Part shown: piece after piece, positions 25,378 through 49,198 of the stretch
Layout: each line of letters starts with the position of its first letter
Position numbering within the stretch: the first letter of the stretch is position 1
Source: Candidatus Nezhaarchaeales archaeon
Lineage (GTDB): Archaea; Thermoproteota; Methanomethylicia; Nezhaarchaeales; WYZ-LMO8
Reading direction: 5' to 3'
Length of the DNA: 64,000 nt
NCBI GenBank assembly: GCA_038887515.1
Contig: JAWAKK010000001.1
Span: 67,518 to 131,517 of the forward strand
Notes under the pieces: model-generated
Told to the model about the DNA's origin: nothing
The model's database searches: none
The model's input: the letters and a program-made list of their open reading frames with translations, nothing else
Program-made: the position numbers and the translations under genes

Positions 25378-26391
25378 ATGAAGCTTGTGAAGTTACGATT
25401 TAAAAGTGGCGACGTAAAGAGTTATAATCTTGACCTTACACTTAAACCATCGTTCGTTTCATCGCTCTACGATAAGGAAGATTTGTTTTATTGGGTTAAA
25501 CGAGTAGGTCTATATGCTAACTTATTATCTCTTAGGCAGAGAAATGATTCGTTGGAGGCCTACATAAAATACGAAGTTGACGACAGAATTCGTGAAGTAA
25601 TCCTTCACGAGTCAGGGCTATGGGACGAAAGCCCAGCGTCGAGAATCTCTAAGCTAAATGCTCCGTTGAAGGAGCATATCAAAGCTCTTACAGAAGTCTT
25701 TCCTGGAGTTAGGCTCTCAATAGCCCCTCACGATTTTGATTGTATACTTGTAGCTTCTATCCTTTCACGAAGGACGAACTACGAAGTCTTCGTACGTAAA
25801 TGGGTCAAAAATATTTGGGACTTGTGGCGTTGCGACCTAAAATTGATAGCCAACCTCTCGCCTAGCGACATTAAGAATGTTGGCACAAGCTATCAATTAT
25901 TGAACCTAATTAAGACACTAAGGGATTACGTGAATATGAGCTATAGGAGAGATAAGATAGAGGATGTTAGAAGAGCGTTGATGCTATGTTGGGGGGTAGG
26001 ACCTAAAATCGCTGATGCAGTTCTCCTTTTTACAACGAAATCTTCTTGGATAGTTCCATGCGATACTCATCTGTGGAGGGTTTCCAGAAGGCTAGGATGG
26101 GCAAGTCAAGAAGATAGGCTACCGACTAAAACCCTATGCTTAAGCTACTACTGCGATGAATGTGTAGACAAGTACGGGCCATGCTTAAGGGAGACCATTA
26201 AGAGTCTATTTCCGGATTTCGGGGGATGGATTCAGACACTCGCTTACCTTTTCGGGTCGTCGATATGCCTAAGTCGTAAACCAAAATGTTACCTATGCCA
26301 TCCAACATTAAAAGAATGCTGTGAAATGATAGAAACGCGAAACAAGCTATCCCTACTGAAAACTGGAGCCCAAGTCGGTTTAAAAACATAG
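25378..26391 (+). CDS. DNA glycosylase/lyase of the HhH-GPD family, Ogg-like.
   Basis: Has the helix-hairpin-helix segment with lysine (LCWGVGPKIADAVLLF) followed by the catalytic aspartate in VPCDTHLWRV. Confidence 0.6.
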   Translation: MKLVKLRFKSGDVKSYNLDLTLKPSFVSSLYDKEDLFYWVKRVGLYANLLSLRQRNDSLEAYIKYEVDDRIREVILHESGLWDESPASRISKLNAPLKEHIKALTEVFPGVRLSIAPHDFDCILVASILSRRTNYEVFVRKWVKNIWDLWRCDLKLIANLSPSDIKNVGTSYQLLNLIKTLRDYVNMSYRRDKIEDVRRALMLCWGVGPKIADAVLLFTTKSSWIVPCDTHLWRVSRRLGWASQEDRLPTKTLCLSYYCDECVDKYGPCLRETIKSLFPDFGGWIQTLAYLFGSSICLSRKPKCYLCHPTLKECCEMIETRNKLSLLKTGAQVGLKT

Positions 26392-43576: not shown

Positions 43577-44296
43577 ATGAAGAAGATCGAAGAAAAAGCG
43601 CGGGCCAAAATGAGGGACATCATCGAGACCTATGATGCGATAGCGGAGGGCTTCTCTAACACTCGTCGTTATCCTTGGATTGAGATAGTCCATCTACTTG
43701 GCGAAATATCGAATAAAACACTTTTGGACATTGGATGTGGAAATGGAAGGCACTTAGTAGAACTCGCTAAAGGAGCAAGCATAGCAGTAGGCATAGACTT
43801 GTCAAAGAAGCTAATTAAGATAGCTAAGACTCGAATATCTAGGCTAGGAGTTACGCATAAAGCAATGCTCGTCTTAGGCGACATGCTCTTTATGCCCTTT
43901 AGACCTGAAAGCTTCGATTCCATCGCATGCATAGCGGTGATGCATCACGTGCCGACCAAAAATTTGAGACAGCTAGCTGTTTCAGAAATAGCTAGAGTTC
44001 TTAGGAGTGGCGGGCTAGCAGTCATATCGGCTTGGTACAGATGGCAGAAGAAATTTGTCTTTGATGTTCTAAAAAGCTTCTTCATGAAGCTCGTGGGCGT
44101 AGTATTTGAATTTGGGGACACTTACATTTCTTGGAAGTCGAAGGGAAAGATATTCAAAAGGTTCTTCCACATATTTACAATAAGCGAGATGAAGGACTTA
44201 ATAAATATCGAGGCCTTCGAATTTAAAGACTTAAAACTAGTTGCCATCGGGAGTAAGAGGTTAATGAACGTTGTAGCAGTAGTTGCTAAGCGTTAA
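43577..44296 (+). CDS. Class I SAM-dependent methyltransferase.
   Basis: Has the LLDIGCGNGRH motif I. Confidence 0.65.
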   Translation: MKKIEEKARAKMRDIIETYDAIAEGFSNTRRYPWIEIVHLLGEISNKTLLDIGCGNGRHLVELAKGASIAVGIDLSKKLIKIAKTRISRLGVTHKAMLVLGDMLFMPFRPESFDSIACIAVMHHVPTKNLRQLAVSEIARVLRSGGLAVISAWYRWQKKFVFDVLKSFFMKLVGVVFEFGDTYISWKSKGKIFKRFFHIFTISEMKDLINIEAFEFKDLKLVAIGSKRLMNVVAVVAKR

Positions 44297-44328
44297 CGCT
44301 AATACTAACTTCTTCGAAATATCACTTT

Positions 44329-44985
44329 GTGAGCAATATGTCTATAACAATAGCTTGGCATGGGCACGCCTGCTTTGAAATTAAAAACCACGTAACGATA
44401 GTGGTAGACCCTCATGATGGTACATCCATTGGGATAAAACCCCCGTCGGCTAAGGCTGACTTAGTCTTGATATCTCATAAACACTTCGATCATGCTAATG
44501 GCTTAATGTTTGTCAAGAAAAATGGCACCGTAGTAATAGATAAGCCGGGTAATTATGAAGTCAAGGGAGTGAAAGTGGTGGGGATACCCACCTATCACGA
44601 TGAATGTCGAGGAGCTAAACGTGGATTAAATACAGTTTACCTCTTTGAATATGATGAAGTTAGGTTCTGTCATTTAGGCGACTTGGGGCATGTGTTAAGT
44701 GAAGATCAAGCCCGTTTCTTAAGACCAGTAGACGTCCTCATGATTCCTGTCGGAGGAACCTTTACTATAGACGCAAAGCAAGCTAATGAAATTATGAACT
44801 TACTATCACCGAGAATAGCAATACCGATGCACTATAAGACGCCTGGACTAAATCTACCGATAGTTGGCGTTGAAGGTTTTATTGCTGGAAAGACGAATGT
44901 AGAACGCTCACAGTCAAATACATACAGGGTATCTAAAGAGACTCTGCCTAGTAAGTTAAAAATAGTTGTGTTAAGTCCACTGTAA
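44329..44985 (+). CDS. MBL-fold metal-dependent hydrolase (UPF0173-like).
   Basis: Has the ISHKHFDH motif. Confidence 0.7.
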   Translation: MSNMSITIAWHGHACFEIKNHVTIVVDPHDGTSIGIKPPSAKADLVLISHKHFDHANGLMFVKKNGTVVIDKPGNYEVKGVKVVGIPTYHDECRGAKRGLNTVYLFEYDEVRFCHLGDLGHVLSEDQARFLRPVDVLMIPVGGTFTIDAKQANEIMNLLSPRIAIPMHYKTPGLNLPIVGVEGFIAGKTNVERSQSNTYRVSKETLPSKLKIVVLSPL

Positions 44986-45126: not shown

Positions 45127-45444
45127 ATGTTGTCGACCATAATAATATCGCCTGAATTCGATATAATACTCGATCCTGAAAATATGGTGATAGGTGAAGC
45201 TAGAAGCGACTTAGCTTTACTAGACGTTACGCCCATAGACAAGAAGATTGGCGAGCTCAATGACATAATAGATGTACTGTTCTGGTCTTTCGATCCAAAA
45301 GTATCGACTTCAACGACGCCTAGATCCGGGAAAAGGGGGTTGCCGTTAAAGGTTTACTACTTGCCAGACATGATACTAGGCTTCCTCGTAGGCTTAGCGC
45401 TGTTCAGCCTAATAATAGCGATGCACTTTACATTAACTCTATGA
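45127..45444 (+). CDS. MtrB-like tail-anchored protein, tentatively assigned.
   Basis: 105-aa product with a single C-terminal transmembrane helix. The N-terminal segment IISPEFDIILDPENMVIGEA and the segment WSFDPK...PRSGKRG resemble the MtrB pattern (APE..L.LDP..G, SLDP, PGREG). I am recalling that pattern from memory. The gene lies directly upstream of the MtrA homolog. Confidence 0.4.
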   Translation: MLSTIIISPEFDIILDPENMVIGEARSDLALLDVTPIDKKIGELNDIIDVLFWSFDPKVSTSTTPRSGKRGLPLKVYYLPDMILGFLVGLALFSLIIAMHFTLTL

Positions 45445-45477: not shown

Positions 45478-46251
45478 ATGTTCGTGAGAACCCTTCAAAA
45501 AATGAAAGTTGAGCTGGCACCAAATTGGCCCGTAGCGGTTGGAGACTACGTAGTTGGAGATCCTAAAGGTTGTGTTGCGATATGTACGTTGGGGTCTGAA
45601 GGGATATGCTCATTCCTAGTAAAAATGCCGGGAGTCGCAATAGTTGGACCTTGTAAAACTGAGAACGTAGGTTTAGAGAAAATAATATTAAACGTAATAT
45701 CAAATCCAAACATTAGGTTTTTAATAGTATGCGGAATCGAAGTTACAGGCCACTTACCAGGTCTCTCCTTTAAAGCTCTTTACGAAAACGGCATAGAGCC
45801 GGCAACTAAGAGAATCAAGGAAGCACCTGGAGCAATACCTTATATAGAACACTTGACCGTTGAAGCTGTGGAACGTTTTCAAAAACAGGTACAATTTATA
45901 GACATGATAGGGGTTGAAGACATAAACATAATTAAAGCTAAAGTCGAAGAACTCGTAACACAAGATCCAGGAGCTTACCCTGAGCCTCCATTTATCGTAG
46001 ATATCGAGAAAAAAGAGACGAGAGAAACCACTATACCTAAGTTAATTTTGGTTCCATCAATCACACCATCACTGTCAACCCTATCGGCATTAATGAGTGA
46101 CGTAAAGCGTAGAGTGCAATTAATAGAAAGAGAAAGGAAAATTATAACTGCTGTAGAAGTTACAAGAGCTTGGAGTATAGTAGCGGGGATATTACTTGCC
46201 TTCTTGCTCTTTGGTCTACTAGCACTTGTAGTGATTTTAGGAGGAACATAA
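45478..46251 (+). CDS. mtrA: Homolog of tetrahydromethanopterin S-methyltransferase subunit A (MtrA), the corrinoid-binding subunit, with a C-terminal membrane anchor.
   Basis: The product has the segments WPVAVGDYVVGD, KTENVGLEKIILNVISNPNIRFLIVCGIEVTGH, APGAIPYIEH and ERFQKQVQ. A C-terminal transmembrane helix is present. The sequence is collinear with MtrA, with high similarity. Confidence 0.85.
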   Translation: MFVRTLQKMKVELAPNWPVAVGDYVVGDPKGCVAICTLGSEGICSFLVKMPGVAIVGPCKTENVGLEKIILNVISNPNIRFLIVCGIEVTGHLPGLSFKALYENGIEPATKRIKEAPGAIPYIEHLTVEAVERFQKQVQFIDMIGVEDINIIKAKVEELVTQDPGAYPEPPFIVDIEKKETRETTIPKLILVPSITPSLSTLSALMSDVKRRVQLIERERKIITAVEVTRAWSIVAGILLAFLLFGLLALVVILGGT

Positions 46252-46252
46252 A

Positions 46253-46456
46253 GTGTCTTCCAAAAGAACCAAGGAAGCGTATACAGCTGAAATTGCTTAC
46301 ATCGAAGCTAGAATTAACGATATAACGACGAGAATACAAATGATCGGAGAGAAAGGTAGGTTCACCACGGGGTTTTATCGGGGCTTCTTTAAAGGCTTCA
46401 TAATTGGATTGATGGTATCGATAGTGTTACTAACATCAATATTGATAGTTATGTGA
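46253..46456 (+). CDS. Small tail-anchored protein that is MtrF/MtrG-like.
   Basis: 67-aa product. Its C-terminal segment GFYRGFFKGFIIGLMVSIVLL is paralogous to the tail of the next ORF. Its position matches the mtrF slot of the canonical mtrBAFG gene order. Confidence 0.45.
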   Translation: MSSKRTKEAYTAEIAYIEARINDITTRIQMIGEKGRFTTGFYRGFFKGFIIGLMVSIVLLTSILIVM

Positions 46457-46471: not shown

Positions 46472-46699
46472 ATGTCGCTCGATGAGGAAGAATTTAGAGT
46501 ACCGACAGTTATAGCTCCACCGGAAATCGTTCAACTACATTCAAAGCTTAATGCAATAAACGAAAAAGTGAACTTCACGCTCAGCGAAGTAGCTCACAAA
46601 GAAGGTCTAAGAATGGGTAGCTATATAGGTTTCCTTTACGGTTTCTTAACAGGCTCTATGATAATGTTAGTACTTAAGTTTGTACTTAGGATCCTGTGA
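46472..46699 (+). CDS. MtrG-like tail-anchored protein.
   Basis: 75-aa product with the segments VPTVIAPPEIV..KLNAINEKVNF..SEVAHKEGLRMGSYIGFLYGFLTG followed by a transmembrane helix. This matches the MtrG pattern (KLD.IEEKVEF ... IGILYG). Confidence 0.55.
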   Translation: MSLDEEEFRVPTVIAPPEIVQLHSKLNAINEKVNFTLSEVAHKEGLRMGSYIGFLYGFLTGSMIMLVLKFVLRIL

Positions 46700-46740: not shown

Positions 46741-48246
46741 TCATTCCTCGCATTCGTTTCTTGTCGAACTTTCATTACTACGCTTAACTTTACGCTCCAG
46801 TTTTTGAAACTTTGCCCTTAAGCTCAATATACAGCCCATCCCCCTATTACCTCCTAGAGGATTCTGCGGCGTCCCCAAGGAATGTAAACACCTAGCCATT
46901 ACATTAGCCCCCAAGGCTAAGCCGTCTTCAACGAACACGACTCTTCTATTGACGTCGTCGTTAAATACGCCAAGCTCGTCAACATACTTAAGTATTAAGT
47001 AAGGCTTTAGACCTGTTATTCCTGCCCTTCCAGTTATACCTATGGTGTAATTATCATTTATTAAACCGTGCGCTATTAAGGTCTCCAGGACTCTTTTAGC
47101 TATAAGAGCTGAAGTATAATCCAGTATCGCTAAGAGCGTCTTGCCTCCATATTGACTGTAGAACTCGTGACCTAGTGACCGCAATTTAGGTAAGTAACTT
47201 CCATTATCCCCTACATCGCATCCTATCAGTAATACTCCTTGCTCGCACGCTAACTTTGCATTAATGGGTATCATGCCCACGCGTACTGCACTTGGAAGGA
47301 CTTTCCTTACGTCTATGTACTTATGCACTTCATAAGCTAATTCCTCGCACTTCTCAGCATCTATGACGTCTTTGGTCTTAATGTACTCTGAAAACTCTAA
47401 AGCTGACGTCGCGACTTCGGTACCTTGAATTAAAGCATCACAAATAGCTCCAGAGAGACCACATATACTGCCTATAGTCTTGGCGTAAGGAAGTTCATCA
47501 TTTGTAACCCTTCCTTTAAAGGTAGTCCCAAAATCCATGGATATTATAGGGTTTCTACAATCTACATCAGTCCACTTAGCTCCAACCTTTATACCGGCAG
47601 TCGAAAGCTCAGCTTCCATCTCATTTGCCATTATCTCACCTCCACTCTTGGGAGGTAGGCAGCCAGCAATCGCTCCATCAAAAAAGACTACATCAAGTTT
47701 TGAATATTCTTTTAAATCATCTGGAAGAGAGTTCTTAGATAAAGGTGCTATCATTTTTGACGGACTTATACCAGCTGCCAGACAACCCTTGGCTAATGCC
47801 CTTATAACCGAGCCGACTTCTTCTGGTGTTCCAAAGCTAGCGCTAATACCTGTTGATTGCACTACAAAATGTAAATCTTTATCCCTATCTAGTCCAGCTT
47901 CCCTAACGCAAGATACGAGGAAATCCCTGATAAACTCGATTACTGCCATTTCGCTTAGCATCTTCCCCCACAAGGTATAGCCTAGTAAGCGCTCGTTGGG
48001 GTGGGGTCTTCTGATGTTTCGTGTTAGTTCGACTGCCCTCCTTACTAGGTAAATTTTTCCAGTTTTTAAATCAGTAGTAGTTATGATGCACTTAGTAGTG
48101 GTGTTGCCAAGCTCAATTGATGCGACAGTGAAGAGTTGCCCAGTCCCTCTAGTTGTTACTTTCACAGGATCAATGAACATGCCGCGCGCAATTCTAGGGT
48201 TATACTTGCCGATTTTACCCTTTCTCTTTAAAAATTTAAGCCTCAT
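46741..48246 (-). CDS. ASKHA-superfamily (actin/Hsp70/sugar-kinase fold) protein. Its function is unknown and it is co-transcribed with mtrH.
   Basis: There are two phosphate-1-like motifs (ASIELGNTTTKCII and ISMDFGTTFKGRV) plus DVGDNGS. Confidence 0.5.
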   Translation of the reverse strand: MRLKFLKRKGKIGKYNPRIARGMFIDPVKVTTRGTGQLFTVASIELGNTTTKCIITTTDLKTGKIYLVRRAVELTRNIRRPHPNERLLGYTLWGKMLSEMAVIEFIRDFLVSCVREAGLDRDKDLHFVVQSTGISASFGTPEEVGSVIRALAKGCLAAGISPSKMIAPLSKNSLPDDLKEYSKLDVVFFDGAIAGCLPPKSGGEIMANEMEAELSTAGIKVGAKWTDVDCRNPIISMDFGTTFKGRVTNDELPYAKTIGSICGLSGAICDALIQGTEVATSALEFSEYIKTKDVIDAEKCEELAYEVHKYIDVRKVLPSAVRVGMIPINAKLACEQGVLLIGCDVGDNGSYLPKLRSLGHEFYSQYGGKTLLAILDYTSALIAKRVLETLIAHGLINDNYTIGITGRAGITGLKPYLILKYVDELGVFNDDVNRRVVFVEDGLALGANVMARCLHSLGTPQNPLGGNRGMGCILSLRAKFQKLERKVKRSNESSTRNECEE

Positions 48247-48250
48247 AGTT

Positions 48251-49198
48251 TTAGCCTACAAGTCTTCGATATGGATGATCTTCACTTATGGGGAGTCCAA
48301 GCTCAAGGTGGGTTGTATCCGTCACAATAGCGTCAGCCATGGCTACTACTGGAAAAACGAATTCTGCATTCTCTATGGGTCCATAGAGTACGAAGTTGCC
48401 ACCGATAATTACTTGAAGGATGTTGCTAGCTATATCGCAGAATCTAAATATCTCTCTACCTCGGGGATGCTCTTTCTTAATTCTCTTAAGCCACGGCCAG
48501 GCCGATATAACGTTATGTAAACTGCTCCCTGTCGGGTAACCGAACTTTGACTTAATGACATACGTTGATGCTAGGGCAGCTCCTGCACCAGCTCCTAAAG
48601 TAGTTACTGCGACATCGATCAATGTAGCCTTGACTCCACACTCATTGGCAATATTAAGTAACCCATTTTTAACAACGCCTCCTCCGCTCGTTAGTATTGT
48701 AACCTTACCCCTTATCGAGGGGTCGGCCGGATTAAACGCCAAAATAACGCTATTAGGCATTTTTAGTTCTCTTAGAACATTAAACTCTTCTTCAGTTATT
48801 GAAACGTTTATTGAGTTATATACGGCTTTATCGATAAGCCCAACCTCTTTGGCATATTTTGCGCCTTCAATCCTAACTCTAGGTTCTGTAGAATCTATTA
48901 GAAATGGAGATGGGGTGACTGATGCTACAAAATCTATGTACTTCTTCATTGCCTCGACGCTTTCGGAGAATATTTGGACCATGCAAGGGTTACCGGTTAT
49001 ATCGGACATTTCCTCTTGCTTCTTTATTAACGCCTCGGCTTTGTCTTTATCAAAAAGGCCTTTCCTATGGTCACTTACTATTTTATGTCCTCCATAAAAT
49101 ATTGTTCCAGCTAAGACCGTAGGGTTTTCGCCTGGTTGTCCTCCTATCTTAACTTTCCCTACTTGGTAAACGTACTGCTCTCTAGCGAATAGATATAT
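48251..49198 (-). CDS. mtrH: Homolog of tetrahydromethanopterin S-methyltransferase subunit H (MtrH), a pterin-binding TIM barrel.
   Basis: The conserved MtrH N-terminal region ([59 protein letters not shown]) is encoded in frame upstream of the first ATG at 49009. The rest of the protein (NVISAWPWL and so on) is collinear with MtrH. No ATG, GTG or TTG start exists in the open frame between 49009 and the upstream stop at 49226-49228. The position equivalent to the Met is an ATA codon at 49196-49198. Confidence 0.75.
   Translation of the reverse strand: [315 protein letters not shown]

Follow-up and report, generated by a model that had tools for sequence, protein, structure and literature searches.

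The 64,000-nucleotide stretch of contig JAWAKK010000001.1 from a Candidatus Nezhaarchaeales archaeon analysed here (the window) carries on its reverse strand, at 46741..48246, a 501-aa coding sequence with an ATG start that we identify as mmp14, encoding methanogenesis marker protein 14 (Mmp14), from the open reading frame (ORF) list, hidden Markov model (HMM) matches, homologues and an AlphaFold2 model. An earlier reading made from the letters and ORFs of this DNA (the sequence-only reading) had described the ORF accurately and taken its product to be an ASKHA-fold (actin/Hsp70/sugar-kinase-like) protein, encoded beside mtrH, with a possible part in the maturation or reactivation of a corrinoid subunit. 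The Pfam family PF09887 (DUF2114) matches residues 38–481 at E=3.5e-174, with 580 bits against a cut-off of 25 and model positions 2–449 of 449 covered, and the NCBIfam model TIGR03285, ‘methanogenesis marker 14 protein’, reaches 566.8 bits against a cut-off of 274 over model positions 2–445 of 446; an NCBI entry named methanogenesis marker 14 from a Candidatus Nezhaarchaeales metagenome-assembled genome (MAG) is 100% identical to the window protein. Considering these two matches and the 934 homologues scored, the ORF is a real gene and no chance ORF, and by the same comparisons it is an ordinary member of a catalogued, uncharacterised archaeal family, also named arCOG04866, marker m26 (Borrel 2019; Adam 2022) and, in M. 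maripaludis, MMP1223. The window protein matches the family over its full length, far exceeds both curated cut-offs, keeps every family-invariant residue and shares the association with Mtr; the window locus is peculiar in local respects only, its mtr cluster being split and its mtrH having ATA in place of a usual start codon. An HMM search of 1.84 billion representative proteins gave 167 matches to the family, all at most 546 aa long and none with a domain fusion, and by this census the family is tiny and compact.

The mtr genes of the window surround mmp14 from both sides. The mtrH gene (48251..49198, reverse strand; HMM matches) shares the strand of mmp14 and stops 4 nt short of the mmp14 ATG, while mtrB (45127..45444; HMM matches), an mtrA–mtrF fusion in which the corrinoid subunit carries a C-terminal MtrF-like segment (45478..46251; HMM matches), a small mtrF-like gene of 67 aa (46253..46456) and mtrG of 75 aa (46472..46699), all on the forward strand, converge on the mtrH–mmp14 pair, with a gap of 41 bp between mtrG and mmp14. 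The proposed operonic link with mtrH, opposite mtrA, is thus borne out. Neither the window nor the related Nezhaarchaeales contigs yielded mtrE, mtrD or mtrC, and the split arrangement recurs on other Nezhaarchaeales contigs (loci L001–L004 and L006); since all eight Mtr subunits are reported for Nezhaarchaeota MAGs in the literature (PMC6783470), the mtrEDC genes of this genome are probably located elsewhere. The window mtrH encodes about 315 aa when read from the ATA at 49198. Its N-terminal 63 codons (49009–49198, reverse strand) are in frame and conserved and have no ATG, GTG or TTG, and gene callers therefore cut MtrH to 252 aa, starting at the ATG at 49009. The ATA (49198–49196), which lies 8 nt downstream of a GGAGGTG and where relatives have ATG or GTG, is either a rare start codon or a base error. 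On the forward strand, the region immediately before mtrB (43577–44985) encodes an S-adenosylmethionine-dependent methyltransferase and a metallo-beta-lactamase-fold protein.

Motif conservation was judged on an alignment of 48 sequences, from Thermoproteota to Methanosarcinales, with 46–85% identity to the window protein, which contains all the family-invariant residues (E45, G47, N48, T50–K52, NEME at 208–211, D238, G240–T242, D344, G346, G349, T405–A408, C453 and C472). The three motifs picked out by the sequence-only reading, IELGNTTTK, MDFGTTFKG and DVGDNGS, are all present, at residues 44–52, 237–245 and 344–350. IELGNTTTK (48091..48117; this and the following motifs lie on the reverse strand), with E45, G47, N48, T50, T51 and K52 invariant and strands at 38–46 and 50–59, forms the PHOSPHATE 1 hairpin, and MDFGTTFKG (47512..47538), with D238, G240, T241, T242, G245 and the following R246 invariant and strands at 234–239 and 242–248, forms PHOSPHATE 2, the first hairpin of the second subdomain. 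The two motifs that had been taken for phosphate-1-like ones thus belong to one ASKHA fold, as its PHOSPHATE 1 and PHOSPHATE 2 hairpins, and a duplicated fold is rejected, since the AlphaFold2 model shows one core. DVGDNGS (47197..47217, preceded by C343), which had been read as indicating the fold, corresponds to no canonical nucleotide motif; in the alignment it is family-specific, it appears from the secondary-structure order to sit in a family-specific insert of the second subdomain, and it is kept in paralogues without nucleotide motifs. The adenosine-type motif is GITGRAGITG (residues 403–412; 47011..47040), which follows strand 401–405 and in which G403, T405, G406, R407 and A408 are invariant, and a CONNECT-2-like strand and helix, VFVEDGLALGA (residues 437–447; 46906..46938), closes the ASKHA core in the alignment and the model; we take these two to be the adenosine and connect-2 motifs by the pattern of Hsp70/MreB-like members. 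The alignment further shows a family-specific invariant N-E-M-E motif in ANEMEAE (residues 207–213; 47608..47628), at the start of helix 209–223, of which the A-N-E core is retained even by degenerate paralogues.

The AlphaFold2 model built from the 48-sequence alignment is confident, with a mean pLDDT (predicted local distance difference test) of 88.7 and a pTM (predicted template-modelling score) of 0.90, and contains the two RNase-H-like beta-beta-beta-alpha-beta-alpha-beta-alpha subdomains that are the ASKHA hallmark. The PHOSPHATE 1, PHOSPHATE 2 and ADENOSINE motifs fall on the expected hairpins and loops, assigned by pattern and not by residue-level superposition. The model and the Foldseek search thereby uphold the predicted actin/Hsp70/sugar-kinase fold: as modelled, Mmp14 is one ASKHA fold and stands as a separate family, in which inserts and tails make up about 200 residues. 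It very probably binds nucleotide.

The C-terminal tail from C453 to C472 (46831..46890, reverse strand) is a candidate metal or redox site, both cysteines being invariant in the 48 sequences. Across orthologues the tail holds 2–5 cysteines, and divergent orthologues have 3–5, as in the tails RCLCALCPACPPLC (Hodarchaeaceae) and RCLYGLCPACRLCETC (another lineage). Since C453 and C472 are invariant and the tail is expanded in the divergent orthologues, the sequences suggest a metal or redox site. The Hodarchaeaceae orthologue combines a five-cysteine tail with a degenerate PHOSPHATE 2 (HFGTL). We also noted degenerate DUF2114 paralogues of about 380–410 aa (P0196, P0204, P0210 and others) that are without GNTTTK, DFGTT, TGRAGITG and the C-terminal cysteines and keep A-N-E, G-x-x-P-V-N and G-C-D-V-G-x-N-G-S; one of them (L091, 1760–2929) is the divergent neighbour of a core MetE-like methionine synthase.

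The synteny of mmp14 with mtr was followed in 80 mmp14 loci from species-representative genomes and on further contigs. An mtr gene lies within 6 kb of mmp14 at 32 of the 80 loci, and the mtrH–ASKHA gene pair proved to be conserved in several lineages: mtrH has mmp14 as its immediate downstream neighbour in Nezhaarchaeales and in a Methanomethylicia MAG (gaps of −7 to 19 bp), as well as in a Bathyarchaeota MAG, Hecatellales and further metagenome contigs, the gaps overall ranging from −7 to 78 bp. In a Bathyarchaeota MAG, two Hecatellales and one Thermoproteota-like contig, mmp14 comes ninth, after the eight genes of an mtrEDCBAFGH operon, and one contig (L088) carries a co-directional mtrBAFGH–mmp14 without mtrEDC. 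In Methanobacteriales and one Methanomicrobiales locus, mtrH precedes mmp14 at a distance of 0.2–3.3 kb on the same strand; some Methanobacteriales have genes for a Na+/Ca2+ exchanger and a universal stress protein, or for a Na+:sulfate symporter, between the two (L032, 4376–5756; L074, 4398–5822; L046, 4316–5689). Hecatellales that lack Mcr and possess Mtr retain mmp14, both on the contigs and according to Adam 2022. The association of Mmp14 with Mtr is strong but already published, and is extended here: Borrel et al. (2014; PMC4153887) observed that the Mtr-less Methanomassiliicoccales lack marker 14 (arCOG04866) and that several orders have it close to mtr, and proposed that it takes part in the function of Mtr, and mmp14 was reported in Thorarchaeia with only MtrAH (Adam 2022). 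The Thorarchaeial point rests on that report, since a homologue search seeded with the Hecatella protein gave no Thor-labelled hit among the 120 matches listed.

A minimal arrangement is the cassette on an 11.6-kb, 62%-GC contig, in which an mtrA without membrane anchor is followed by mtrH and then by a 398-aa Mmp14, co-directional and with spacing of about 4–12 bp; no other Mtr subunit was found on that contig. In this Mmp14 the nucleotide motifs and the cysteines are preserved, and the GCDVGxNGS motif is missing. The cassette loci (L093, 5170–7947; L094, 2381–5155) come from MAGs labelled Undinarchaeales or Methanopyri. Since the cassette exists, and since the mtrH–mmp14 pair stays intact in the split Nezhaarchaeales cluster, Mmp14 appears tied to the soluble corrinoid module (MtrA and MtrH), and not to the MtrCDE pump or its L-type [Fe8S9C] cluster, an unexpected cluster described in a July 2026 preprint (10.64898/2026.07.03.736320) that leaves its insertion undiscussed.

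The recurrent neighbours of mmp14 other than mtr genes share, by their annotation, a corrinoid or redox theme. At 22 Methanobacteriales loci (e.g. L038, 3022–3615) the gene about 145 bp downstream encodes a CobY-like nucleotidyltransferase, with a gene for a PRC-barrel protein after it; the best NCBIfam matches of the nucleotidyltransferase, TIGR00454 (170 bits, cut-off 174.7) and CobY (141 bits), fall just under their cut-offs. In Methanopyri mmp14 lies between an upstream CobN-like gene and a downstream gene for a MesA-type methionine synthase, and in Hodarchaeaceae (Asgard; L092, 6765–10173) mmp14 is the divergent neighbour of two tandem Meth_synt_2 genes, core methionine synthases, with no mtr gene within 9 kb; core methionine synthases have been predicted to take methyl groups from MtrA (Price et al., 2021). 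In 21 Methanosarcinaceae loci (e.g. L082, 6591–8437) a thioredoxin gene lies 17 bp upstream. In Ca. Hecatella orcuttiae (L085, 8001–12716) a canonical RACo with Fer2, RACo_linker, RACo_middle and RACo_C_ter domains lies 123 bp downstream of mmp14 and is followed by a URO-D family methyltransferase, unlike in other Hecatellales, in which mmp14 ends the mtr operon.

Among ASKHA proteins of known function, the RACo/RamA activators (COG3894) invite comparison, given that, like them, Mmp14 has an ASKHA ATPase core, is coupled in the genome to a corrinoid protein with its methyltransferase, and carries a cysteine-bearing segment that could hold a metal centre. RACo structures (3zyy, 4c1n) are also among the top Foldseek matches, at ranks 2, 6 and 9 with E of about 3e-7. 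The sequence-only reading had named RACo as a structural match to look for, and this expectation was borne out in part only, in that kinases and Kae1 score equally and Mmp14 has no RACo domain; with YgjD/Kae1, MK0840, xylulokinase and glucokinase level with RACo and query-normalised TM-scores (template-modelling scores) of at most 0.40, no ASKHA subfamily stands out as nearest to the model. PDB searches by single sequence and by family profile gave no match. Mmp14 differs from RACo/RamA in having neither an N-terminal [2Fe-2S] ferredoxin nor two [4Fe-4S] motifs, only the two invariant tail cysteines, and against Pfam it gave no match to RACo_linker, RACo_middle or RACo_C_ter and none to Fer2 or Fer4 even at E≤10. 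From the archerases HgdC and BcrAD/BadFG (2-hydroxyacyl-CoA dehydratase activators and benzoyl-CoA reductase ATPase subunits) it differs in giving no PF01869 match and in being twice their size; where HgdC-type activators hold a dimer-bridging [4Fe-4S] cluster on two cysteines per monomer, Mmp14 likewise has two invariant cysteines, in its C-terminal tail and at positions non-homologous to those of HgdC. Its profile aligned to a BcrAD-type marker protein with an hhalign probability of 0.7%. Compared with type III pantothenate kinase (CoaX), a compact protein of about 250 aa, Mmp14 has 501 aa, of which 238 align at 10% identity and about 250 are additional, forming inserts and tails, no Pfam match and a genomic context unrelated to coenzyme A synthesis. 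To diol-dehydratase reactivase and MutL we found no specific structural or sequence likeness beyond the generic ASKHA fold.

The invariant E-x-G-N-T-T-T-K, D-x-G-T-T and T-G-R-A motifs, the translational coupling to mtrH and the recurrent synteny together argue for a functional link to Mtr. We tentatively suggest, with rather less than even confidence, that Mmp14 is a dedicated accessory factor of the soluble Mtr corrinoid module that returns the MtrA cobamide to Co(I), and that it resembles RACo/RamA in function and not in family. Mtr catalysis needs Co(I) (10.64898/2026.07.03.736320). Mmp14 would serve both MtrA, the cobamide carrier, and MtrH, the methyl-tetrahydromethanopterin (H4MPT):cob(I)amide methyltransferase; it may dock on MtrA, its presumed substrate, when the cobamide is in the inactive Co(II) state or during loading, and would spend ATP binding or hydrolysis on altering the cobalt coordination. 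The cysteine-bearing tail (as a metal or Fe-S centre, or as a dithiol), or else an external donor, could then aid the return to active Co(I) through electron transfer or cofactor handling. The corrinoid maturation or reactivation put forward in the sequence-only reading accordingly keeps its ASKHA fold and its Mtr link, while the reactivase role is plausible only: on motifs, context and model, an ATP-dependent role in servicing the MtrA corrinoid is plausible, and Mmp14 is a reasonable candidate for the missing activation factor of Mtr. More doubtful is the stronger form of this proposal, namely that Mmp14 is the missing ATP-dependent activase of the MtrA cobamide and represents a new class, with a C-terminal cysteine-ligated (possibly dimer-bridged) metal centre and an architecture unrelated to RACo/RamA, serving both the Na+-pumping Mtr and the stand-alone MtrAH or MesA modules of non-methanogens.

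Several results weigh against such a role. The fold search cannot separate RACo from kinases or Kae1; Pfam, searched to E≤10, gave no second family at E≤0.1 beside DUF2114 (chance matches appear at E of about 0.2) and no ferredoxin-type, flavin or RACo domain; and the Mmp14 profile aligned to the Hecatella RACo with an hhalign probability of 0.3%. Since a true RACo adjoins mmp14 in Hecatella, Mmp14 is no simple substitute for RACo. No linkage of mmp14 to mtr occurs in Methanosarcinaceae, Methanoperedens or Methanococcales, and phosphate motifs are degenerate in some orthologues and paralogues, so that ATP turnover by Mmp14 may not be universal. A full-text literature search on the names of Mmp14 returned comparative genomics only and no report of Mmp14 with Mtr, and marker proteins did not turn up in term searches of two papers on the structure of Mtr. 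A kinship of Mmp14 with RACo or with the BcrAD-type protein was considered as well, and the profile comparisons, with the hhalign probabilities given above, showed none.

Other roles have to be weighed on the same evidence. A cobamide-loading or -exchange chaperone for MtrA, which like diol-dehydratase reactivase or MutL would insert or swap the cofactor with no reduction, would account for the same coupling to Mtr or MtrA–MtrH and for the ASKHA fold, and could draw on the cobamide-biosynthesis neighbours (the CobY-like gene in the 22 Methanobacteriales loci, the CobN-like gene in Methanopyri); we nevertheless regard it as unlikely, as reactivase and MutL structures are absent from the top fold matches and as redox chemistry is suggested both by the invariant tail cysteines and by the neighbouring thioredoxin and RACo genes. 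That Mmp14 acts instead as a small-molecule kinase (like type III pantothenate kinase or anhydro-sugar kinase) for a metabolite needed only with Mtr appears improbable, although the fold search places kinases level with RACo, considering that only 230–290 of the 501 residues align, at 8–16% identity, that neither PanK nor another kinase gave a Pfam match, and that no Mtr-specific metabolite is obvious, with H4MPT, coenzyme M and cobamide presumably also occurring in Mtr-less methanogens without Mmp14.

Mmp14 might also have a part in building the membrane portion of Mtr or in its maturation, such as insertion of the [Fe8S9C] cluster into MtrCDE or assembly of the tail-anchored subunits. Its place as ninth gene of complete mtrEDCBAFGH operons in many lineages, a cysteine tail that could carry a cluster, and a preprint that reports the cluster and leaves the insertion undiscussed would all be in agreement with this; there is little probability in it, however, as the cassette contig has no MtrCDE, mmp14 stays with mtrH in the window and on other Nezhaarchaeales contigs while mtrEDC lie elsewhere, Thorarchaeia with only MtrAH have the gene (Adam 2022), and the Hodarchaeaceae orthologue adjoins methionine synthases and not mtr. 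It is very improbable that the position of mmp14 is a mere relic of ancestral gene order and that the protein acts elsewhere, for instance on Mcr or in redox homeostasis: the unlinked loci of Methanosarcinaceae, Methanoperedens and Methanococcales, and the other marker genes found just downstream of mmp14 in one Bathyarchaeota MAG, would fit, but Mcr-less lineages keep mmp14, Mtr-less methanogens lack it, and tight coupling of 4–30 bp recurs across very distant lineages. Both the maturation of the membrane part and the relic are thus weakened by the cassette without MtrCDE and by the retention of the gene in Mcr-less lineages.

Since the family is already annotated and its association with Mtr is in the literature, the novelty of the window gene is low; it is no new kind of element, and what is added here is a sharper hypothesis drawn from the ASKHA fold, the minimal cassette and the cysteine tail. 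Literature searches found no functional study of Mmp14, DUF2114, TIGR03285 or MMP1223, and a search for older reports of ATP-dependent Mtr activation gave nothing usable. The family is of moderate interest, as what it does is relevant to a question on Mtr that has been stated as open: a 2025 structure paper expressly leaves open how the oxidised complex regains activity. Moreover, Mmp14 is one of few methanogenesis markers that track Mtr and not Mcr, and if it is an activase or maturase it would be a tool for in vitro reconstitution of active Mtr and a possible methane-mitigation target.

A typical archaeal mmp14 also occurs on contig DASPRZ010000063.1 (L023), whose title is ‘Candidatus Acidiferrales bacterium’; the neighbouring genes cluster with those of Methanomicrobia-type loci, and the contig is probably mis-binned. 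Within the window, a 337-aa ORF at 25378–26391 (forward strand) has no Pfam match at E≤1e-5, and the remaining genes are housekeeping genes, for the mevalonate pathway, two aldehyde:ferredoxin oxidoreductases, GatAB, arginine/lysine biosynthesis and carbamoyl-phosphate synthase.

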